Source: an uncultured delta proteobacterium (GTDB lineage: Bacteria > Desulfobacterota > Binatia > UBA9968). From it: 64,000 nt of DNA. This document shows, in pieces, positions 6,899 to 48,359 of this stretch. The stretch's first letter is position 1. Each line of letters starts with the position of its first letter. A program made the translations under genes and the position numbers. Location: assembly GCA_963816145.1 (NCBI GenBank), contig CAWFJP010000029.1, positions 288,001 through 352,000 of the forward strand, given 5' to 3'. The notes under the pieces were generated by a model. The model was not told the DNA's origin. It did no database searches and saw only the letters and a list, made by a program, of their open reading frames with translations.

Positions 6899-7850
6899 TT
6901 AGACTAGCTCTTGAAATAATTGTTTCCAGGCAGCCAATTCCTCTTTCGGTTTGACTATGTGAGCGAGACTTCGGCACTGGCGTTTTAGCAATCGGTAAAA
7001 TTCTCGATCCGACTCTGCGCGCAAAAGCAGGCGCCGCAGCGTTTTTGTGTCGCCAACGGGAAAGTAACCGGCAAAGCGCTTGCCGAGGGTCCCCATCAAG
7101 CCGGATATTTTTGATGCTATCACGGGCACGCCGGACGCGAGCGCTTCCGACAGGACGTTGGAGCTGCCCTCCATTTTTGAGGTGATGGTGACGAGCTTGC
7201 TTTGGGCGAGCAGGGCGCGGGTCTTGCGGTGGGAAAGTTGACCCAGCCAACGGTAGCGGGGATTGCGTTTCACTTCGGCTTTGACCTCTTTCTCAATCCC
7301 CTTATCAAGGGCCAGCCCGACCTGGGTGACGACGATACGTGATTGCCGCGGCAGATCGCGCACGGCCATCGCCGTACGCAGCGGGTCTTTTTCGTCGCGC
7401 AGATGGCCGATCACGCAAACTTCAAACCGATCTTTATGCCGCTTCGGTATGCCCGGAAGTTGCTCAGCCGACTGATAGATCACCTTAGTTTTGCCGCGAA
7501 AGCGTGTCGGCAGTTCTAATAAAGCGAGTTTTTGTAGGGCGACCAAGCGCGTCGCAAACTCAAGGGATTGTTGAGATTCCTTATTTTGATGGATATCGCG
7601 ATAAACATCGGTGCCGGTGAGCACGACGATCAGCGGTTTGGCCGGATGGGTTTCGTGAAACCGTCTGATTGATTCGGCGCTGCGCAGGGCATGAAGCGCG
7701 ATCAACGACATCGCAAGTTTTGCCGTCATAGATTTGCCGCACGCGCACGCGGTGGCCGAGTTTTTTCAGGATCGCCGCCCAGCGCAGCGCTGTGATCTTG
7801 TTGCCGTTGTTGATCGTCAGCGGCGCGGGAGTGACCAGTTGGATATTCAC
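6899..7850 (-). CDS. senB: Selenosugar synthase SenB-like GT4 glycosyltransferase, with a +1 frameshift near 7707
   Basis: N-terminus VTPA..NNGNKITALRWA (ORF 7581-7850) joins IALHALRS, VLTGTDVYRD, GHLRDEKDP, SKMEGSSNVLSEA (ORF 6899-7729) if one base is removed; lies 8 bp downstream of senA. Confidence 0.85.
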
Positions 7851-7858
7851 GTGTCACG

Positions 7859-9229
7859 TTACTTGGCGCAGGTGCGAAAGCCGGCCCAGACATCACGCCG
7901 ATCGGGGGTGTAGAAGTTGCGCCAGCTGTTGCGGATCAACAACGACGAGGTCGCCCAGCAGCCGCCGCGCAGGACTTTATGAGTGCCGAACCAGGGCTGC
8001 GAGTATTCCTTGTAAGGATCGGCGCTAAAGCCTGGATAGGGCAGGAAATCATCCGCAGTCCATTCCCAGACGTTGCCGATCATCTGGCGGCAGCCGAAGG
8101 CGCTGTCGCCGGCGTTATAAGCTGCGACTTCGACGACACCGTCGCCGCGCCAGCCGAGATTGGCATGTTGTGGTTCGGGGGATTGATCGCCCCAAGGATA
8201 ATGGCGCCGTCGTTGACTTAGTCCGATTCCTGCCGATGTCGGTTCTCCCGATGCGGCTAATTCCCATTCCGCTTCGGTGGGCAGGCGCCGGCCGGCCCAG
8301 TTACAAAACGCTTCGGCCTCAAACCAGCTGATATGCACCACTGGCAGATCTTCGTTCAACAGGACGTAGCGGTCGTAGACGCGCTGCTGCCAGCGCCCAT
8401 TATCGAGCGGCTGCCAGTAGACCGGATGGTCGAGTTTTTCCTTATACGCGGCAATTTCAACGGGCTCACTGACGTTTTTGTTGAAGAACTTGGCGAAGGA
8501 TTTTTCCAGCTGCGGCGAGCCGCCGGATTCGAGCCATCGCCAGCCCTCGGTGCTCCAATACTTCGGTTCGCGATAGCCACCTTCTTCGACGAATTCCAAA
8601 TAATCGCCGTTGGTCACAGGCGCGCGAGCGATGCTGAACGGTTTGACCTCGACCTCATGGGCCCATTTCTCGTTGTCGAATATAAACGGAACATCCTTGG
8701 TTGCGCCGATAAGAAACTTTCCGCCGGGAATTTCGACATCGCCGGGCCAAGCGCGCGGATCGAGAGTGTCACCCAACGCGGATAGCTGGAGAAACCGCGG
8801 TGGCGGGTAGCCCAGAGTCTGGCGCGTGTAGGCGAGCGCTTCGGAGTGCATCCCTTCGTGAAACGTCGCCAACCAATCAAAATAGAACTCGTCGGGCGAT
8901 AGTTCGGATTTGCCGTCGATGCGGGCGATGCAGCGCTCGAGCACTTCGTTCATGTAGGCCAGGGTGTCGGCTCGGTTCGGCAGCAGCAACTCCCAGCGAG
9001 TGTCGTGGGCGACATCTGTGGAGTTATAAAGCCGGTCGCCAGATTCCAGGATCGGCCGCTCGCCGCGCAAGTGGCGCAGTACCCAAAACTCCTGGAACCA
9101 GGCGACATGGCCGATCTCCCACAGCGGCGGATTGACGATCGCCAAGCGCGGGCCGATCAGCTGGCGATCGTCAAGATCGGCGACCAGGCCAAGCAGGCGG
9201 CCGCGGAACTCACGCATGGCGGCGATCAA
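7859..9229 (-). CDS. senA: Selenoneine synthase SenA-like sulfoxide/selenoxide synthase (DinB + FGE-sulfatase domains)
   Basis: NPPLWEIGHVAWFQEFW (SenA-type rather than EgtB-type SPxKWH), FHEGMH iron ligands, FDNEKWAH, RLPTEAEWE, RNFYTPDRRD..AGFRTC; the true start may be upstream (MSVKQLIAAM) behind a 1-bp insertion near 9233. Confidence 0.88.
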   Translation of the reverse strand: MIAAMREFRGRLLGLVADLDDRQLIGPRLAIVNPPLWEIGHVAWFQEFWVLRHLRGERPILESGDRLYNSTDVAHDTRWELLLPNRADTLAYMNEVLERCIARIDGKSELSPDEFYFDWLATFHEGMHSEALAYTRQTLGYPPPRFLQLSALGDTLDPRAWPGDVEIPGGKFLIGATKDVPFIFDNEKWAHEVEVKPFSIARAPVTNGDYLEFVEEGGYREPKYWSTEGWRWLESGGSPQLEKSFAKFFNKNVSEPVEIAAYKEKLDHPVYWQPLDNGRWQQRVYDRYVLLNEDLPVVHISWFEAEAFCNWAGRRLPTEAEWELAASGEPTSAGIGLSQRRRHYPWGDQSPEPQHANLGWRGDGVVEVAAYNAGDSAFGCRQMIGNVWEWTADDFLPYPGFSADPYKEYSQPWFGTHKVLRGGCWATSSLLIRNSWRNFYTPDRRDVWAGFRTCAK

Positions 9230-9392
9230 TTGGCTTCACGCTCATGGTGGCGCGAGGGCCGGCGCTCGGCTGGAGACGACGTTGATGCGAGATTCTCCAT
9301 GCTGATGCTCAATAGCCAGCTGTGATTCGAACGAGTGAGAAATCTTATTCTTCTTGATGTCTAACTGCAATCTCGCTGCGCATCACAAATCT

Positions 9393-10526
9393 TTAAGTCA
9401 ATTTCGCGATGGCTGCGCGCCATGGTGCCAATTCTTTCACCCATCGCCGGCCGCGATTTCGTTCGACGTAGGCGTAGGCCGCTCGCAGTCGGCGCGTCTC
9501 GGCTGGTGTTAGTCGCAGCGGGCGTTTGTCCTTTTTGGTGGCGCTGCTCGCTTCAGCATAACTCCTGAGCGCACGCCAATGCGGCAACGCGTCGGCGCCG
9601 AAGCGCTGGCGGACGATATTCGTCCAGGACGATTCCGCTCGATACTTGGCCGGAGCATGGGCGTAGTCGAAGCAAGTCGCCAACGGGATAAAACTCAACT
9701 CTTCTTGCAGCAACGGATTGTTGAGATAGCCGTAGACAGACTCGGGCAAGCGCGGATCCCGGCCGATGAGGGGGGCGATGTGTAGTTCTTCGCGCATGGA
9801 CAGATCGTTGACCGGATAGTTGTCCCACAGCAATAACGGACGTTGGATCTTCTTGGCAATGCGCCGCACATGGGAAAGGGTGATGGTTTTTGAAACCACC
9901 GATGGCCCGGTCCAGAAGCAGGGGGTGTTTGGCGGCAGATATTGCGCCAAAGTTTCGAGAAAATGCGGTTCGAACTTGCCGAAGACTCGTTCGAGCATGG
10001 CATCCTCGCTGTAATAAGAAGGACAAATCCACCAGGCGACGTCGCTCCAGCTCCCCGGCTGGGCGGCGATGATTTTTGCCAGCCAAGTCCCCTCGGCGCG
10101 CGCCAGGCTATTCCTAAAAGCGCGCCGGTCGCGCGGATCGCTCAAGCGCGAAGGAATATCGTCGAACAAGACGGCGAAGGTGCGCACGCCGGCGTCGTAG
10201 AAGCGCTGCGCTTTGCGCAGGAGAATGCCAACGGCGCGATCGTCGCCGAAGTACAATCCCTCGCCGGGGTGAAAACCATAGACGAAGTCAATTCGATTAC
10301 TTTGCGCAGCTCGAATCAGCAGTAGGAGCTCGCGCCATTTCGTTTTAGGATAGGGCTGTCGCCATAGCTTTCGATGATACGGATCGTCTTTGGGCGCATA
10401 GAGAAAGGTATTCATCCCCCGCGCCGCGCCGAATTCGAACAGCCGCCGTCGGTGCGACATTGACCAAGGTGGACCGAAAAAACCTTCGACAATGCCGCGG
10501 CGCAGAAAAGTTTTAGCGGCGTTCAT
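9393..10526 (-). CDS. GH84 beta-N-acetylglucosaminidase / O-GlcNAcase-like, catalytic domain only, no signal peptide
   Basis: RGIVEGFFGPPWS, YAPKDDPYHR, catalytic VLFDDI, WTGP and WDNYPVND motifs of GH84. Confidence 0.9.
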   Translation of the reverse strand: MNAAKTFLRRGIVEGFFGPPWSMSHRRRLFEFGAARGMNTFLYAPKDDPYHRKLWRQPYPKTKWRELLLLIRAAQSNRIDFVYGFHPGEGLYFGDDRAVGILLRKAQRFYDAGVRTFAVLFDDIPSRLSDPRDRRAFRNSLARAEGTWLAKIIAAQPGSWSDVAWWICPSYYSEDAMLERVFGKFEPHFLETLAQYLPPNTPCFWTGPSVVSKTITLSHVRRIAKKIQRPLLLWDNYPVNDLSMREELHIAPLIGRDPRLPESVYGYLNNPLLQEELSFIPLATCFDYAHAPAKYRAESSWTNIVRQRFGADALPHWRALRSYAEASSATKKDKRPLRLTPAETRRLRAAYAYVERNRGRRWVKELAPWRAAIAKLT

Positions 10527-10719
10527 ACGGCGCCAATTTCGCACAGCAACGCTGGTGGAACAAGATTGCGGTGGTTATTCGGCGTGAGGCGCGGAATAAC
10601 TCAGCGATAATGGGACATCGCGATTCAGCGTCGGAATGGTCGGATGGCTAATGGTCGCTTCGGTGAGCTAGCCCGGATTCGAACGACACCAAAAGTAGAC
10701 AAGAACCCCCACCTGCTCG

Positions 10720-11568
10720 TTAGCTCTTCAAAAACGGCACGCCCAGGCGCATTAGGTCGTCGAAGGCATCCCAGTGCACCATGTGCTTGCAGCCGTTGAC
10801 GATGTGAAGGTTGATTTGGGGTTGCTGTTCTTTCAGCAGTTGGGCGCGTTCGCCGGCGTGGGCGCGGTCTTCACGGCCGAAGATCATCAACAGCGGCATC
10901 TTCAGCTCGGCGAGTCTTTCATATAAGGGCTTGCTCGCCGCGCCGCCGCCGGCGGGGGCGTCGTGGCTCTGGCGGTCCTGGTGTGCTTTGAAATTGCCGC
11001 CGATCATGCTGCGGTGGCGCAGGGCGACGTCTTCGTCCGAGATTAACGCATGGTTGAAAGTGTCAGCCTGCAAAAGTTTGCGGGCATCCTCGACTGTCGG
11101 TTCCTTTTGCGCCATCTCTTTGTCGACGCGCGCCTGCACCGCTTCGTACTTCCCGACCTGGGCTTCGGTCTGCAGCGGCAGCAGCGAGCCGGTGCCAAGA
11201 ATGATGACGTGCGAATAGCGGCTCGGCTCTTCCAACGCCAGTTGAATGGCGAATCCGCCCGAGCGTGAATGGGCGATCAGCGCGGTCTTGCCGAGGCCCG
11301 CGGCATCGATGAATTTCGGGATGGAGTTGCGTTGCTGCGCCGTGCTTTGCTTGGCGGGTATGTCGGAGAGGCCAAAACCGGGATAGTCAAAGGCAACGGA
11401 GCGAAATCCGGCCTTGGCAAAAGGGCCGAGATTGCGCAAAAACACATCCGCCGAGCTGCCCAGCGACGCGCCGTGCAGGAACAGCAACGATGGCCCCGAA
11501 CCTTCTTCGATATAGCGAAGTTTCAGTCCATCGACGGTAACGAACTTGTTTTCCGGTTTGGTCGCCAT
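10720..11568 (-). CDS. Alpha/beta fold hydrolase
   Basis: LFLHG, FDYPGFGLS, nucleophile elbow AHSRSG, GREDR, KHMVHWD. Confidence 0.85.
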   Translation of the reverse strand: MATKPENKFVTVDGLKLRYIEEGSGPSLLFLHGASLGSSADVFLRNLGPFAKAGFRSVAFDYPGFGLSDIPAKQSTAQQRNSIPKFIDAAGLGKTALIAHSRSGGFAIQLALEEPSRYSHVIILGTGSLLPLQTEAQVGKYEAVQARVDKEMAQKEPTVEDARKLLQADTFNHALISDEDVALRHRSMIGGNFKAHQDRQSHDAPAGGGAASKPLYERLAELKMPLLMIFGREDRAHAGERAQLLKEQQPQINLHIVNGCKHMVHWDAFDDLMRLGVPFLKS

Positions 11569-11841: not shown

Positions 11842-12651
11842 ATGATACGATTGCCTGTGACGCTGTTCGCCGTTTTATCATTGACGGTCGTGGGATTTGC
11901 CAGCGCCGCTGTGGTTGCGCCGTCGAACGACCTCGGCGAAATGATTCGCATTCCCGCCGGCGTGTTCGTGATGGGTAGTAATGACGGTCCGGCAGACGAA
12001 CGGCCGCAGCATCGCGTCGAAGTTGCCGAGTTCTTCATCGATCGCACCAAGGTGACGAATGCCTCGTTCGCACTGTTCCTGAACGCCATTGGACCGGAAG
12101 GTCCCAAGGGCGAAATATATTTCGATATCGATGACAGCGATGCGCGCGTGCACCGGCGCAACGGTGAGTGGACGGCGGATGCCGGGTTTGAGAATAATCC
12201 GGTCGTCGAAGCTTCCTGGTATGGCGCCGTCGCCTTTTGCCGCTGGGCCGGCAAACGTTTGCCGACGGAAGCGGAGTGGGAAAAGGCGGCGCGCGGCACC
12301 GATGGTCGAAAATATCCCTGGGGTGACGAAGCTCCAGATCGGACGCGAGCGCAATTCGGCGCCGGTTGGAACGAGCTCAAGCCGGTCGGGAGTTTCCCCA
12401 ATGGCGCGAGTCCTTACCGACTGCTCGATGCGGCGGGAAACGGCTGGGAGTGGGTGAGCAGCGCCTATCGCCCCTATCCGTACAATTTGAGAGACGGCCG
12501 GGAGGATCTCAACAAAGATATGGTGCGCACCACTCGCGGCGGCGGGCATGACGCGCGAAGCGAAGAATTGACCGCGACTCATCGCGGCCGGCATGTCTCG
12601 CGCAATCCGCACGGCGGCCATCACAACATCGGCTTTCGCTGTGCGCGCTAG
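11842..12651 (+). CDS. FGE-sulfatase (SUMF1/EgtB C-terminal-like) domain protein with signal peptide
   Basis: IPAGVFVMGS, ERPQHRV, RLPTEAEWEKAARG, GNGWEW, IGFRCA; hydrophobic N-terminus. Confidence 0.85.
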   Translation: MIRLPVTLFAVLSLTVVGFASAAVVAPSNDLGEMIRIPAGVFVMGSNDGPADERPQHRVEVAEFFIDRTKVTNASFALFLNAIGPEGPKGEIYFDIDDSDARVHRRNGEWTADAGFENNPVVEASWYGAVAFCRWAGKRLPTEAEWEKAARGTDGRKYPWGDEAPDRTRAQFGAGWNELKPVGSFPNGASPYRLLDAAGNGWEWVSSAYRPYPYNLRDGREDLNKDMVRTTRGGGHDARSEELTATHRGRHVSRNPHGGHHNIGFRCAR

Positions 12652-12676
12652 CTGGTTATCGCCGCCAATACATTTC

Positions 12677-13321
12677 ATGCCGCTTTTTTACGTCATCGAA
12701 GGAATGCTCATCGGTCTGGTGGTCGCAGTGCCGGTGGGGCCGTTGGGTTTGTTGTGCATCAATCGGTCGCTCATGTTAGGTACGGTCGCCGGTCTGGCTT
12801 CAGGATTGGGCGTCGCCAGCGCCGATGCACTTGCCGCCGGCATCGCCGCGCTGGGGATTTCCTTGATTTCCGATTTTTTTATCGAATATCAATTTTTGCT
12901 GCGCTTGGTCGGCGGGATCTTTCTTTGTGTGATCGGTTATCGGATTTACCGCACCGAGCCGGCGGCGCAAATCCCGACGATTTCGAATAACGGCTTATTC
13001 GGCGCCTATGCGACGGCTTTTTTTCTGGCCATTTCCAATCCGGCGACGATTCTATCGTTTATCGCGATCTATGCGGGCTGGCATGTGCCGACGCTTCACG
13101 GCCATTATATGGCGGCGCTGTTGTTGATGACGGGAGTTTTCATCGGTTCGGGGTTGTGGTGGGTGGCGCTGTTTGCCGGGTTCACGCTGTTCCGGCTCAA
13201 CATCGGCCACGGATTTTTGGCTTGGGTCCATCGCATTTCCGGAGGGGTGATCGTCGGTTTCGGCATTATAGTGCTTTTGAGCTTGTCGCCCTTGAAACAA
13301 GCTTTGAACATTAATTTCTGA
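12677..13321 (+). CDS. LysE/RhtB family exporter
   Basis: VAVPVGPLGLLCI, GLGVASAD, SNPATILSF, GSGLWW; about 6 TM segments. Confidence 0.85.
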   Translation: MPLFYVIEGMLIGLVVAVPVGPLGLLCINRSLMLGTVAGLASGLGVASADALAAGIAALGISLISDFFIEYQFLLRLVGGIFLCVIGYRIYRTEPAAQIPTISNNGLFGAYATAFFLAISNPATILSFIAIYAGWHVPTLHGHYMAALLLMTGVFIGSGLWWVALFAGFTLFRLNIGHGFLAWVHRISGGVIVGFGIIVLLSLSPLKQALNINF

Positions 13322-14487: not shown

Positions 14488-15516
14488 TTAGCCACGCTTG
14501 CGGAGCAGTAGCAGAGAAAACCATTCTTGCGGATCGCTGTAGTGGGCGACCGGCCGCAAGCCGATGAAGCCCAATTGCTCCTGCAATCGGTGCGGTTCGA
14601 ACTTGCGGCTGATTTCGACCAGGATGCGTTCCTGCCGATTCCAGGTGAATGCAGCGTTGGCGCTGGGGAAGCGGATGGTTTGGTCTTCGTTGGCCACGGC
14701 GTACATCTCGATTTGCTGCCACTCAGGATTGAACCAGGAGTGATAGCGCATCTTGTTAAGATCGAAGTTGCTGCCGAGCCGGCGGTTGACACTGCGGAAC
14801 ACATTCAAAATAAATGCTGCGGTGATGCCGCGGCTGTCGTTGTAGGCGGGTTCTAAAATATTCTTATTTTTGACCCGGTCGGCGCCCAGTAGCAGATAAT
14901 CGTTAGGTCCCATGGCGTCCGACAAAGCCCGGAAGAAGCGCGGGAACTCGGTCTGATTGAAGTTGCCGATGGTGCTGCCGAGAAAGATGAATAGTTTCGG
15001 TAGAGCCTTGTCGACGGCGGAAAAGCCCTCCTGGTAGCGCGAATGGATGCCGTGAAAATGGATCTGGGGAAAATCTCTGCTGACCGCGGCTTGAGAAGCG
15101 AGCAGGCCCGCGACGCTGACGTCGATGGGCGCGAAGTGGCAGCGGCCGCGTTGGCGCAACTGTTCGGTGAGTAAGTGCACGGTCTTTTTGCTGTAACCGG
15201 CGCCGAGCTCGACGATGCATTCCACCGGCGCGGCGGCGATGATGGCTTTCGCCTGGGCTTCGAGGATGCTGTTTTCGGTGCGGGTGAGATAGTACTCCGG
15301 CAGTTCGCAGATCTCTTCGAATAGTTCCGAACCTTGATCGTCATAGAGATGATAAGCTTCGAGCCAGCGCGGTTGGTCCCACAGCGTGGTCAAGATCGAC
15401 AGCGTCGGCACCGAGTCGAGATCGGCGCCGCGCCTTGACCAGATGCCGTCAGGCTCCGACGACCAGCGTGACATCTCACTGGCGGCGAAAATGCTTCGTG
15501 ATGTTTCTTGTTTCAT
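14488..15516 (-). CDS. egtD: L-histidine N-alpha-trimethyltransferase (hercynine synthase)
   Basis: YDDQGSELFEEICELPEYYLTRTE, ELGAGYSKKT, FLGSTIGNF, AYND..GITAAF, IEMY, EISRKF; start codon uncertain. Confidence 0.88.
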   Translation of the reverse strand: MKQETSRSIFAASEMSRWSSEPDGIWSRRGADLDSVPTLSILTTLWDQPRWLEAYHLYDDQGSELFEEICELPEYYLTRTENSILEAQAKAIIAAAPVECIVELGAGYSKKTVHLLTEQLRQRGRCHFAPIDVSVAGLLASQAAVSRDFPQIHFHGIHSRYQEGFSAVDKALPKLFIFLGSTIGNFNQTEFPRFFRALSDAMGPNDYLLLGADRVKNKNILEPAYNDSRGITAAFILNVFRSVNRRLGSNFDLNKMRYHSWFNPEWQQIEMYAVANEDQTIRFPSANAAFTWNRQERILVEISRKFEPHRLQEQLGFIGLRPVAHYSDPQEWFSLLLLRKRG

Positions 15517-15614
15517 GGCCGGGGAGACTATAAAAGAAATTAACAGCGGATGCGACATCGAGACCAAGTGTTTTGGCCCTGAAGTGCGCAGCATAAGACT
15601 CCTCTCTTTTGTCC

Positions 15615-15681
15615 GTCATACCGGCGGAAGCCGGTATCCAGGTTTGCGAGTTTGCTGGATTCCGGCGTGCGCCGGAATGAC
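15615..15681. repeat. REP-like family A copy in the egtD / ABC divergent region
   Basis: GTCATACCGGCGGAAGCCGGTATCCAG...CTGGATTCCGGCGTGCGCCGGAATGAC. Confidence 0.8.
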
Positions 15682-15708
15682 GAACTGTAAAGTAGATTGG
15701 TCAAGTAT

Positions 15709-16476
15709 ATGAACCGTGATGAGATCGCCATTGAATTTCGCGACGTCAGTTTCACACTGCCGACCGGCAAGACCCTTCTGGCCCACCTGAACCTGCAGGT
15801 TGCCCTCGGCGAGACGCTGGTGCTGCTCGGACGCAGCGGCTCGGGCAAGACCACGACGATGAAATTGATCAACCGCTTGATCGATCCCACCTCGGGCCAG
15901 GTGATCGTCGACGGCAAGCCGACGGTGGATTGGGATCCGATCCGGCTGCGCCGGCGCATCGGTTATGTCATTCAGGAAATCGGCCTGTTCCCGCATCTGA
16001 CCATCGAACAGAACATCGGCGTGGTGCCGCGGCTCGAGGGTTGGGAGCCGGAACGCATTCGCCAGCGGGCGCGCCAGCTTTTGACTCTAGTCGGTCTGGA
16101 CGCCGACCGTTTCGCCGCGCGCTTCCCGCGCGAACTCTCCGGCGGCCAGCGCCAGCGCATCGGTGTCGCCCGAGCCCTGGCGGCAGATCCGCCCGTGATT
16201 CTCCTGGACGAGCCGTTCGGCGCCCTCGATCCGATCACCCGCCGGGATATACAGCAGGAATTTAAAACCTTGCAGCAGGAGCTCGGCAAGACCATGGTGT
16301 TCGTCACCCACGACATCGCCGAAGCCTTCGTGCTCGGCGATCGCATCGGCTTGCTCAAGGACGGCGAAATGGTTTTGCTCGGAGCCCCGGCGGAGCTGCT
16401 CGAATCATCCAATGCCGAGGCGCGCGCTTTTGCCGCCTGCTTTCACGACGGCCAAACGATCGGGAGACCGGCGTGA
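15709..16476 (+). CDS. Quaternary-amine ABC transporter ATPase (OsmV/OpuCA/EgtV-like)
   Basis: GRSGSGKTT, LRRRIGYVIQEIGLFPH, LSGGQRQR, LLDEPFGALDPITR. Confidence 0.92.
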   Translation: MNRDEIAIEFRDVSFTLPTGKTLLAHLNLQVALGETLVLLGRSGSGKTTTMKLINRLIDPTSGQVIVDGKPTVDWDPIRLRRRIGYVIQEIGLFPHLTIEQNIGVVPRLEGWEPERIRQRARQLLTLVGLDADRFAARFPRELSGGQRQRIGVARALAADPPVILLDEPFGALDPITRRDIQQEFKTLQQELGKTMVFVTHDIAEAFVLGDRIGLLKDGEMVLLGAPAELLESSNAEARAFAACFHDGQTIGRPA

Positions 16477-18031
16477 CGCTGCTGGAATTCTTCGCGAACA
16501 ACCGCAGCGAGTTCGCCGAACTGGTCTTGGAACATTTGTTCCTGGTGATCATGTCCACCGGCATCGCTGTGCTGATCGGCGTGCCTTTGGGTATCCTGCT
16601 GACGCGCCGGCCGGCGCTGAGCAAACCGATTCTCGGTTTTGCCAACATCATGCAGACTGTGCCGAGTTTGGCGCTGTTCGGTTTTCTCATTCCGCTGAAC
16701 ATTTACTTGTTTCAGTTCAAACTCGTCGGCGGTATCGGCGCGCGCACAGCGATCGTCGCCCTGGTGCTTTACTCGCTCTTGCCGATTATCCGCAATACCT
16801 TTACCGGCATCAGCAACGTCGACCCGGCGATCCGCGACGCCGGCCGCGGCATGGGCATGACCGATCGTCAGTTGCTCTTTCAAGTCGAACTGCCGCTCGC
16901 GCTCGGCGTGATTCTCGCCGGCGTGCGTGTGGCCACGGTGATTTGCGTCGGCACGGCAACCATCGCGGCCGCCATCGACGCCGGCGGCCTGGGCCGTTAT
17001 ATCTTTCGCGGCTTGCGCGCCAATGACAACGTGCTCATTCTCGCCGGCGCCGTGCCGGCGGCGCTGATCGCGCTCGGCGCGGATTTGCTCCTGGGCTATT
17101 TCGAGAAGACGATTCAACTCGGCGCTGTGGCGCGTAGCAAGTCAAAAAAACTCCTGTGGGTTACCGCGGTCGTCGTCTTGGCGTTTCTCGGCGGCATGTA
17201 TTTTTTCACCGGCAAAGGAGCTGGGCGCATTGCCGTGGGTTCCAAAGACTTCACCGAACAGGTGATTGTCGGCGAGATCCTCGCCCAAGCGATCGAGGCG
17301 AAAACCGGCATGGAGGTGGTGCGACGTTTCGACCTGGGCGGCAATCTCGCCCATGACGCGCTTGTCGGCGGTGAGATCGATCTTTACGTCGAATACACCG
17401 GCACCGGACTGCTGGCGATCCTGAAAGAAAAGCCACTGGCCGATCCGCAGGAAGTCTACGCCGTGTGAAAGCAGAGTATGCCAAGCGCTTCGACCTGGAA
17501 TGGACCGAGCCGCTCGGCTTCAACAATACCTTCGCCATACTTGTCCGCGGCGAGGATGCCAAGAAGCTCGGTTTGAAATCCGTCAGCGACGCGGCCAAGG
17601 TCTCGTCTCAATGGCGCGCCGGCTTCGGCCAGGACTTCATGTCGCGCGCCGACGGTTATCCGGGATTTTCCAAAGCCTACGGACTGCACTTCGAGGCAAC
17701 GCGCGAAATGGATCTGTCGCTGACCTACCGGGCGCTGGCGGAAAATCAGGTCGATCTCATCGCCGGCAACTCCACCGACGGTTTGATCGCGCGCTACGGT
17801 TTGTTCCAATTGGAGGACGACCGCCACTATTTTCCGCCCTACGACGCCGTCCCCGTGGTGCGGCAGTCGACGTTGCAAAAACATCCGCCGCTGCGCGACG
17901 TGCTGAGGCAGCTCGGCGGTATTCTCACCGTCGAGGAGATGCGCAAGCTCAATTACGCGGTGGACGGCGAGAAACGCCAAGCGAAGGATGTGGCGCGGGA
18001 GTTTTTGCGTGGCAAGGGAATCTTGCCTTAA
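16473..18031 (+). CDS. Fused permease + substrate-binding protein (OpuBC/OsmWX/EgtU-like), with a -1 frameshift near 17463
   Basis: QTVPSLALFG, RGMGMT, GGLG permease motifs, then GSKDFTEQ, YVEYTGT, GFNNTFA, LEDDRHYFPPY; adding one base gives EVYARVKAEY. Confidence 0.87.
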
Positions 18032-47086: not shown

Positions 47087-47263
47087 TCAGCCGGTGATCT
47101 CGTAGCGCACGTTGGTCGGGCCTTCGACGCGGCGGTGGGCGCCGATTTCGAAATTGTAATTGCCCTGTAAAACTTTCCCCGCGACGCGCTCGGAGCGGAG
47201 GATTAGGCCGTAGGATTTTCCTGGGCCGCCTTGTTCGGCGTGGATGTCAAAGGGTGGTACTAG
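47087..47263 (-). pseudogene. 3' half of a cysteine-dioxygenase-like cupin gene split by an IS
   Basis: LVPPFDIHAEQGG..EGPTNVRYEI matches the C-terminus of the intact paralog 48888-49469. Confidence 0.9.
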
Positions 47264-48330
47264 GAGCCTGTCGGAGAAAGTGTTAAGGGGCAGGTATAAA
47301 AAGTTTTCAGCATGGCCATTTTTTCTGGACACCCAATTGATCGAGACTATATTGGTGTGCATGAGAACGTTCAAGTCGTACCAACCTGATCAACTTTACT
47401 TGTTGCCGCCAGCGCTTCGCGATTGGTTGCCCGAGGGGCACCTGGCGCTGTTTCTCAGCGATGTGGTGGATACGCTGGAATTGGGGCCGATCTTTGATGA
47501 CTACGAGCAGGGCGATGGGCGAGGGCAGCCGCCGTATCATCCGGCGATGATGGTGAAGCTACTGATCTATGGGTACTGCATGGGCAAGCCGTCCTCGCGC
47601 AAACTGGAGCGGGCGAGCTATGAGGAGGTGGGGTATCGGGTGTTGTGCGCAGAGCAGCATCCGGACCATGACAGCATCGCCGAGTTTCGCAAGCGCCATC
47701 TTAAAGCGTTAGCCGGACTGTTTGTGCAGGTGCTGCGGCTGTGTCAGAGAGCGGGGCTGGTGAAGTTGGGGCATGTAGCGCTGGACGGGACCAAGGTCAA
47801 GGCCAACGCATCCAAGCACAAGGCGATGAGCTACGAGCGGATGTGCAAAGCGGAGCAGGAATTAGAGCTTGAGGTCAAGCGGCTGCTGGAGCTGGCCGAG
47901 AAGGTCGATGGGGCGGAAGACCAGGAGTTTGGGGAAAAGCGCGGGGATGAGTTACCGGCGGAGTTGGCGCGGCGAGAGAGCCGGCTTGCCAAGATTCGTC
48001 AAGCGAAGGCTGAGCTGGAAGAGGAGGCGCGCCAGCGCGCCGAGCAGGCTGCGGCCCAGGCGCAAGCAGAGATTGAAGAGCGACGGCTCAAGGAAGAGCA
48101 GACGGGGAACAAGGCCAAGGGGCGAGAGCCCAAGATAAACGATCCCCAACAAAGCGTGCCCCAACCCAAAGCACAGAGAAACTTTACCGATCGGGATTCA
48201 CGGATCATGAAGGACGGGGCGACGGGGGGCTTTGTTCAAGGGTACAATTGCCAAGCGGTGGTCGATAGCCATGCCCAGATCATCGTGGCGGCGGCGCTCA
48301 CGCAACAGGCCAATGACAAGCAGCAGTCCG
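47264..48330 (+). mobile_element. IS1182-family insertion sequence, right end missing
   Basis: Begins GAGCCTGTCGGA right after CTAG; transposase motifs YHPAMMVKLLIYGY, PDHDSIAEFRKRH, ALDGTKVKANAS, NFTDRDSRIM, GYNCQ; ends abruptly after ANDKQQ with no matching right IR. Confidence 0.9.
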
Positions 48331-48359
48331 GTCGACTTTGCCGGGAGTGCCTTGGGTGA
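47361..48359 (+). pseudogene. IS1182 transposase, C-terminally truncated
   Basis: Lacks the distal DDE residues; the frame runs into the antisense host gene. Confidence 0.85.

Follow-up and report, generated by a model that had tools for sequence, protein, structure and literature searches.

Why should a glycosidase gene stand directly in front of two genes for selenoneine biosynthesis? The question is raised by a stretch of 64,000 nucleotides from the genome of an uncultured delta proteobacterium of the class Binatia (contig CAWFJP010000029.1, positions 288,001 to 352,000; referred to here as the window), in which a gene of glycoside hydrolase family 84 (GH84) is followed by senA and senB. 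The described selenoneine and ovoselenol pathways end in a non-enzymatic elimination of a selenoxide, and they leave open the fate of the sugar carrier and the reduction of the selenoxide in the cell. No glycosidase is mentioned in the available text of the preprint describing the sen genes (Kayrouz et al. 2022; 10.1101/2022.04.13.486033), and no paper was found linking GH84, an N-acetylglucosaminidase or any other glycosidase to selenoneine or to 1-seleno-N-acetylglucosamine (SeGlcNAc), in a search that covered papers outside their supplementary files. A first-pass annotation of the window had proposed that GH84 is a new step in selenoneine or ergothioneine biosynthesis. The comparative analysis presented here suggests that a functional tie between GH84 and the sen genes in this bacterial order is well supported, because the genes are linked in related genomes and the sen-linked GH84 proteins form a single isolated clade; the ergothioneine variant of the proposal found no support.

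Organisation of the GH84-senA-senB cluster

Domain and profile searches placed GH84, senA and senB on the minus strand, confirming that the three genes are co-directional. GH84 (9393-10544) encodes a cytoplasmic beta-N-acetylglucosaminidase of 383 aa (PF07555, E 9e-79); a GTG start at 10544 was used instead of the ATG at 10526 chosen by the first-pass annotation, which had otherwise identified the gene correctly. A spacer of exactly the 163 nt previously given (9230-9392, minus strand) separates it from senA (7859-9229), which encodes a SenA-type selenoxide synthase of 456 aa with DinB and FGE-sulfatase domains (PF12867 and PF03781; NF041186, 489.7 bits against a cut-off of 420). The gene for the selenosugar synthase of family GT4, senB (6899-7850; TIGR04348, 339 bits against a cut-off of 300), follows after 8 nt and is frame-interrupted. 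The GH84-senA gap contained no promoter-like or terminator-like site on scanning, had no Rfam match at E ≤ 0.1 and showed nothing unusual in folding (z-score -0.38). An RNA run (X18) gave one contig of 245 nt inside GH84 (10037-10281, three mismatches), a piece of 144 nt (10654-10797) and three pieces of 32-50 nt within senA; no contig from four sequencing runs bridged two genes of the cluster, and DNA carry-over is possible in run X18.

The identity of senB agreed with the earlier assignment, but its reading frame is not intact. An open reading frame (ORF) of 276 aa (6899-7729) lacks the N-terminus and covers only positions 45-309 of the TIGR04348 profile, and the first ~45 codons, from a GTG at 7850, lie in a different frame. 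An alignment with four relatives shows a single additional base in the window near 7708 (7700-7715). A metagenome contig assembled from short reads, about 97% identical in this piece, does not have it; of the three DNA runs compared, just one covers the site. Full-length SenB matches in 50 relatives extend from profile position 1, 2 or 6 to 308/309. Two other genes are equally split between frames, namely the OpuAC domain of an ABC transporter of the window (at ~17465, a second frameshift in the window) and a NagZ-like GH3 on contig 1 of the genome (G000:C1:210937-211897), matched as two overlapping pieces, and similar splits occur in several relatives assembled in few contigs. The insertion is therefore probably an assembly indel rather than the mark of a real pseudogene. 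An alternative genetic code or a programmed frameshift was rejected, because the relatives have a plain open frame at this site.

Linkage of GH84 to sen genes in related genomes

GH84, SenA and SenB were searched for in 61 genomes of the same order, metagenome-assembled genomes (MAGs) of Binatia type from three GTDB families, including two flagged as unpublished (G005 and G035). GH84 of this clade was found in 53 of the 61 genomes, and in 49 of these 53 it lay at most 2.5 kb from SenA or SenB on the same contig, so that the linkage on which the earlier proposal hung is borne out in related genomes. The gene order GH84-SenA-SenB was kept in 45 of the 49 linked genomes, while in four genomes (G036 and, from family f2, G037, G039 and G041) SenA was elsewhere and SenB came directly after GH84. 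Family f3 kept the GH84-SenA pair in 19 of 19 genomes, with SenB directly behind in 18; G047, of the same family, yielded only a SenB fragment, on another contig. Where the GH84-senA gap is short in this family, the two matches are 35-45 nt apart. Close homologues come from soil and wetland MAGs labelled Candidatus Binatia or 'delta proteobacterium'.

A housekeeping role would offer a different account of this neighbourhood. GH84 might be a cytoplasmic GlcNAcase that removes O-GlcNAc from proteins or serves glycan or cell-wall recycling, and it would then adjoin the sen genes merely by inherited synteny. The adjacency, however, outlasts rearrangements and changes of the flanking genes across three families, down to 58% identity: the trio is retained while its flanks vary, even within one genus (L014 against L019), and the genes flanking it are dissimilar between two f3 species. 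GH84 and SenB are, moreover, jointly missing in G017, G028, G043 and G045. All three genes are missing in G017 and G028, and G043 has SenA and neither SenB nor GH84 (these three genomes are 80-95% complete). The housekeeping role is favoured by the unlinked genomes, at least in part, since GH84 is truly apart in G005, where it is followed by 6.4 kb of other sequence (L007), and is also apart from senAB in G013; in G012 and G032 the separation is compatible with a contig break. It is favoured as well by the fact that in families f1 and f2 GH84 is equally often beside a gene for a secreted FGE-like protein, and by the restriction of all linked cases to one order.

The sen-linked clade and its distribution

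Eighty GH84 loci were fetched, one genome per species; several belong to genomes of the 61-genome survey, so the two sets of counts are not independent. Eighteen of the 80 loci were at least 58% identical to the query, and 14 of these had SenA or SenB beside GH84, the remaining four being L007 and three Burkholderiales MAGs (of these, L018 stops at a contig end). No sen gene lay within the fetched flanks of the 62 loci with at most 41% identity. In a tree of 84 sequences, from which L022 was dropped for its short high-scoring segment pair, 22 high-identity rows fell on one side of a branch with an SH-like approximate likelihood ratio (SH-aLRT) support of 98; the sen-linked proteins do form one clade. 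When 1.84 billion cluster representatives were searched exhaustively without a profile, one full-length member (58%) and fragments came up, followed by matches of at most 43%.

Outside the order, GH84 of this clade was found in 0 of 200 other genomes of a phylum-wide sample, where the best match was 38% identical, and in 0 of 400 other sampled Burkholderiales, among which SenB was present in 75 of 200. Twenty Burkholderiales SenB loci were also searched by tblastn with eight proteins, GH84 being the only glycosidase detectable in this way; none had GH84 of the clade, 11 had an adjacent SenA and six a SelD. The GH84-sen link is lineage-specific, having been met within this sampling in a single uncultured order, and selenoneine producers do not share the step in general: GH84 of this clade was found in none of the 400 sampled Burkholderiales, while many of them have SenB.

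The GH84 copies of the three Burkholderiales MAGs (L012, L013 and L018) are 63-65% identical, and their nesting in the Binatia clade suggests lateral transfer. What adjoins them is an MFS transporter, a LysR regulator or a contig end, and no sen gene. All three recipients have SenA and SenB elsewhere, which gives the functional tie weak support, because of the base rate of SenB in that order. Mis-binned Binatia contigs were rated an unlikely source for L018, which has a TctC/Bug-type neighbour that we take to be typical of Burkholderiales, and for L013, which lies on a contig of 512 kb.

Domain, structure and active site of GH84

PF07555 is the only domain of the window GH84 (265 bits against a cut-off of 25) and begins at residue 13-16, leaving no room for a signal peptide; the absence of a signal peptide and of extra modules, like the intact catalytic pair, had been read correctly in the first-pass annotation. 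The pair, D128-D129, falls on the DD of CpOGA and BtGH84 when aligned and is nearly invariant in an alignment of 56 GH84 sequences. The architecture is a TIM barrel followed by a short C-terminal helical bundle, and the AlphaFold2 model (predicted local distance difference test, pLDDT, 95.6) gave only GH84 structures as top Foldseek matches. From membership in this family, hydrolysis of beta-GlcNAc glycosides is the predicted activity of the protein. Its best solved relative is an O-GlcNAc hydrolase, that of Thermobaculum terrenum (5diy; E 2e-68, query TM-score, TMq, 0.85), which shares the fold, the cytoplasmic location and the composition of a catalytic domain plus a helical bundle, is 33% identical and is longer (474 against 383 aa). 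This relationship speaks for the housekeeping role, but no GT41 O-GlcNAc transferase (OGT) was found: PF13844 had 0 matches in the window genome (G000; 7.8 Mb, 31 contigs, 99.5% complete), whereas control genomes gave matches.

The DD pair and the sugar-binding Lys, Tyr, Trp, Asn and Asp of 5diy and the bacterial GH84 O-GlcNAcases (OGAs) are conserved in the window protein, and the sugar-site Gly, the Tyr of CPxxY and the Trp, Asn and Asp of WDNYPVND are present. Unlike those enzymes, the window protein has Phe23 at the position corresponding to OgOGA Tyr10, together with other clade-specific changes. Phe23 and Phe195 each occur in 22 of 22 clade members, where 61 of 62 other GH84s have Tyr, and His92, Ser176, Trp154, Trp171, Trp172 and Phe292 are further residues specific to the clade. 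Tyr69 of human OGA (hOGA) presumably occupies the same position as OgOGA Tyr10. According to the available part of the OgOGA paper (PMC2973230), its conserved sugar-site residues are Gly8, Tyr10, Tyr160, Trp219, Asn221, Asp226 and Asn254; Tyr10 contacts both sugar and N-acetyl group and is retained in hOGA, and mutating Tyr69 of hOGA affects the hydrolysis of 4-methylumbelliferyl-GlcNAc (4MU-GlcNAc). The replacements at conserved positions of the active-site region fit a changed aglycone site. Such clade-specific loss of otherwise conserved Tyr residues argues against a housekeeping GlcNAcase, as do the missing transferase, the persistent adjacency and the joint absences; weighing these against the unlinked copies in G005, G013 and the Burkholderiales recipients, we regard that account as rather unlikely.

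Selenium and hercynine in the window genome

The window SenA scored 362 bits with chain 8ux5, 352 bits with OvsA (8u41) and 240 bits with the SenA of Variovorax paradoxus (8k5i), being thus nearer by whole-sequence score to the solved OvsA than to the V. paradoxus SenA. In the alignment with chain 8ux5, its residues Y409, N438 and F439 stand opposite Y421, N450 and F451; we take this chain to be the OvsA-YNF variant with an offset of 20 tag residues. The substitutions M401Y, Q430N and A431F turn OvsA into a SenA, as the available text of a preprint on OvsA states (10.1101/2024.04.10.588772). A gene for the histidine N-alpha-methyltransferase EgtD (14488-15594, minus strand; TIGR03438, 304 bits against a cut-off of 290.9), missing from the inventory of the first-pass annotation, lies within the window about 4 kb from the sen cluster, and EgtD is also near GH84 in loci L005, L007, L011 and L020. 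Because of the Y/N/F motif and the nearby egtD, we read the window protein as a predicted hercynine-using selenoneine synthase.

Two SenA subtypes were seen in the Burkholderiales SenB loci (L096-L115). The first, lacking selD and oriented divergently from senB, is 50-53% identical to the window SenA; the second is 29-38% identical and placed in five of six loci inside senA-senB-selD cassettes. Another contig of the window genome carries a second gene with DinB and FGE domains (NHISS), EgtB-like (G000:C3:91448-92734, L094), which scores below the cut-offs for EgtB (224 against 360 bits) and SenA (220 against 420 bits) and has orthologues in many relatives. In the region upstream of egtD (15593-15703, minus strand), the Rfam family WsnRNA46 was matched weakly (30.7 bits, where the gathering score is 65.3), most likely by chance.

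The only SelD of the genome is encoded on contig 30 (G000:C30:565877-566803, L001) and has an in-frame TGA, the selenocysteine form. SelD of this type was found in 57 of the 61 genomes of the order; the TGA was present in 54 of 58 SelD match rows, and three of the four rows without it are fragments missing the N-terminus. In every relative row compared, SelD was either on a different contig or separated from the sen genes by hundreds of kb. Selenoproteins and the sen pathway presumably depend on one and the same SelD. The first-pass annotation had noted no egtC, egtE or selD/senC in the window, in agreement with the lack of any selD, egtC or egtE match on its contig; EgtC and EgtE did not reach the profile cut-off anywhere in the window genome.

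These data bear on the lyase-free route to ergothioneine offered by the first-pass annotation, in which GH84 would take the place of the C-S lyase, acting on a thio-GlcNAc-hercynine conjugate built by SenB and SenA. The missing EgtC and EgtE would suit such a route. We know of no biological thiophosphate donor that could feed it, and the putative synthase passes the SenA model and carries the SenA motif. A glycosidase would leave a sulfoxide or a sulfenic acid, not a thione, and the second EgtB-like gene on another contig also counts against it. In the available text of the Kayrouz preprint (10.1101/2022.04.13.486033), the sulfoxide formed by SenA from thioglucose does not eliminate spontaneously, so a cleaving enzyme would be needed, but thioglucose is a very poor SenA substrate. 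Since SelD is so widespread in the order and SenA has the hercynine (Y/N/F) motif, the sulfur route is unsupported, and we consider it highly improbable.

Proposed role of GH84

The best explanation makes GH84 an accessory enzyme to selenoneine synthesis, specific to this lineage and acting on the GlcNAc carrier of selenium. That it works with the sen genes at all seems probable to us; we infer this shared function from linkage, and the identity of the substrate is likewise a deduction. In the proposed pathway, SelD, encoded elsewhere in the genome, would make selenophosphate, from which SenB would produce 1-seleno-beta-GlcNAc, and SenA would couple this to hercynine supplied by the nearby EgtD, giving the hercynyl-SeGlcNAc selenoxide. 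Cellular reductants would reduce some of the selenoxide before its elimination, and GH84 would cleave beta-Se-GlcNAc linkages, chiefly in the resulting hercynyl-SeGlcNAc selenoether, by the substrate-assisted mechanism of its family, releasing selenoneine and GlcNAc. A GH84 reportedly cleaves thioglycosides without general acid catalysis. As far as the available text of the same preprint goes (10.1101/2022.04.13.486033), SeGlcNAc is beta-configured, the SenA product is a selenoxide that eliminates spontaneously, and the reduced hercynyl-SeGlcNAc selenoether was seen in vitro with dithiothreitol (DTT). The first-pass annotation had suggested cleavage of the Se- or S-glycosidic bond of GlcNAc-selenoneine or GlcNAc-ergothioneine, which makes chemical sense. 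Hydrolysis of beta-Se-GlcNAc, above all of this selenoether, is put forward here as a tentative assignment.

The sugar released by the elimination could equally concern GH84, an idea absent from the first-pass annotation and of similar weight to selenoether hydrolysis. GH84 would hydrate 2-acetamidoglucal to GlcNAc via the oxazoline that occurs in its normal mechanism, thus recycling the carrier and removing a potential inhibitor of GlcNAc enzymes. GH20 hexosaminidases are said to hydrate 2-acetamido-D-glucal, and none was found in the window genome. N-acetyl glycals are reportedly tight-binding inhibitors of hexosaminidases, which cuts both ways, fitting either an enzyme that binds the glycal or one that is inhibited by it. 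In the available text of the OvsA preprint (10.1101/2024.04.10.588772), 2-acetamidoglucal was observed as the sugar released in the OvsA reaction and SenA is said to be analogous. Glycal hydration would account for GH84 staying with SenB as well as with SenA, and for the altered Tyr residues; however, the literature search gave no report of glycal hydration by a GH84, the genome also holds the NagZ-like GH3 on contig 1, and a generally important salvage step would be expected in other sen or ovs lineages, in contrast to its absence from the 400 sampled Burkholderiales. We therefore treat it as a possible but doubtful role.

The four genomes with GH84 directly beside SenB and SenA elsewhere, together with G043, which has SenA and neither of the others, would fit a third role, in which GH84 splits free SeGlcNAc into selenide and GlcNAc. 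Together with SenB it would act as a store-and-release pair, either buffering the selenium supply of SelD and selenoproteins or clearing surplus selenosugar at times of hercynine shortage. The genomes all use the selenocysteine-type SelD, and free sugar does exist in cells, since an ovsA mutant accumulates SeGlcNAc according to the available text of the OvsA preprint (10.1101/2024.04.10.588772). If one apparent operon held both the synthase and the hydrolase of this compound, however, a futile cycle at the expense of UTP and ATP would result, and SenA sits between GH84 and SenB in most linked genomes (the 45 of 49 mentioned above), so that we find selenosugar turnover improbable.

Returning to the accessory-enzyme explanation, we see an even chance that GH84 is the first natural glycosidase in selenometabolite biosynthesis, be it as a selenoglycoside hydrolase releasing selenoneine or as a 2-acetamidoglucal hydratase. 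Several observations weigh against it. All linked cases come from one order and are kin rather than independent; one event in an ancestor may thus account for the association. In G005 and G013 GH84 is separated from senAB and adjoins the secreted FGE-like gene instead, and in the three Burkholderiales recipients no sen genes are adjacent to it. The enzyme is dispensable for the selenoneine and ovoselenol producers studied so far, being absent from the 400 Burkholderiales and the 20 SenB loci. The senB gene is frameshifted in the window assembly, and N-acetyl glycals, the class to which the by-product of the pathway belongs, could hinder a GH84 working beside SenA.

Neighbouring genes

Upstream of GH84 and co-directional with it is a gene for an alpha/beta-hydrolase (10720-11568, minus strand; PF00561), HsaD/BphD-like, whose identity across the genus, 87-94%, exceeds that of GH84 and whose position changes: it was found upstream of GH84, upstream of SenA or, in G016, G018, G024, G027 and G034, between the two. 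The secreted FGE-sulfatase-domain protein already mentioned (FGE2; 11842-12651, plus strand; PF03781) is encoded divergently from the GH84 side and has a signal-peptide-like N-terminus. Its orthologues occur only in families f1 and f2 (e.g. L090:11206-12060 and L091:7822-8637); it lies on the contig of GH84 within about 6 kb in about 20 genomes and directly beside GH84 in 11, and in G005, G012 and G013, which have GH84 and senAB on separate contigs, it keeps its place beside GH84. A LysE-family exporter gene (12593-13321, plus strand; PF01810) follows FGE2, as it does in family f1, and is kept next to it in L005, L007, L008, L009, L011, L020 and L022.

Beyond egtD, and divergent from it, are genes for an ABC ATPase and a permease fused to an OpuAC betaine-binding domain (15697-18031, plus strand), a layout that we take to be that of the ergothioneine transporter EgtUV. 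Farther away, an ORF with a DUF772 transposase domain was matched at 47244-48359 (plus strand), and the guanine-plus-cytosine (GC) content drops at 56-60 kb of the window, where the ORFs have no Pfam match.

Comparison with known systems and significance

Like the senABC cluster of V. paradoxus (Kayrouz et al. 2022), the window has an adjacent pair of SenB (TIGR04348) and a protein of the SenA model, at the 8 nt distance given above, and would share with it hercynine supplied by EgtD and selenophosphate made by SelD. In contrast to that cluster, it has no selD/senC, the single Sec-type SelD being on another contig, and it has an additional GH84 in front. The sen biosynthetic gene cluster as defined by Kayrouz et al., a cassette of an egtB homologue, tigr04348 and selD, includes a co-localised selD/senC that the window lacks. 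The ovs cluster (OvsA, OvsM, SenB and SenC) uses the same SeGlcNAc donor and selenoxide elimination as the predicted pathway of the window, and OvsA is the nearest solved structure to the window SenA by sequence score; OvsA has, however, the motif M/Q/A instead of Y409/N438/F439 (hercynine, C2 chemistry), and the window has egtD nearby and no ovsM-like gene among the ORFs scanned beside the cluster. Unlike the bacterial GH84 OGAs, the window protein has senB and senA as its genomic partners, and no OGT was found in its genome. The C-S lyase EgtE is comparable in that GH84 would likewise release a chalcogen-imidazole from a carrier, if the preferred selenoether hydrolysis is true; EgtE, however, carries out a pyridoxal phosphate (PLP)-dependent beta-elimination and GH84 would hydrolyse a glycosidic bond with an unrelated fold, and in the described sen pathway the release is spontaneous. 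We file the locus as a variant of the known sen cluster in which senC is missing, GH84 is added and the alpha/beta-hydrolase varies.

A glycosidase kept beside senB and senA across an order is a concrete candidate for the missing biochemistry of these pathways. If it is a selenoglycoside hydrolase, the 'spontaneous' last step would be enzyme-assisted in thiol-rich cells; if it is a 2-acetamidoglucal hydratase, the GlcNAc carrier cycle for selenium would be closed. Either would be a rare case of a GH84 acting on a small molecule rather than on glycoproteins, and the enzyme could aid the in vitro or heterologous production of selenoneine, in which the reduced selenoether is a loss. Even if GH84 proved to be unrelated to the pathway, a variant of the sen cluster without senC would be documented in abundant uncultured bacteria of soils and wetlands.

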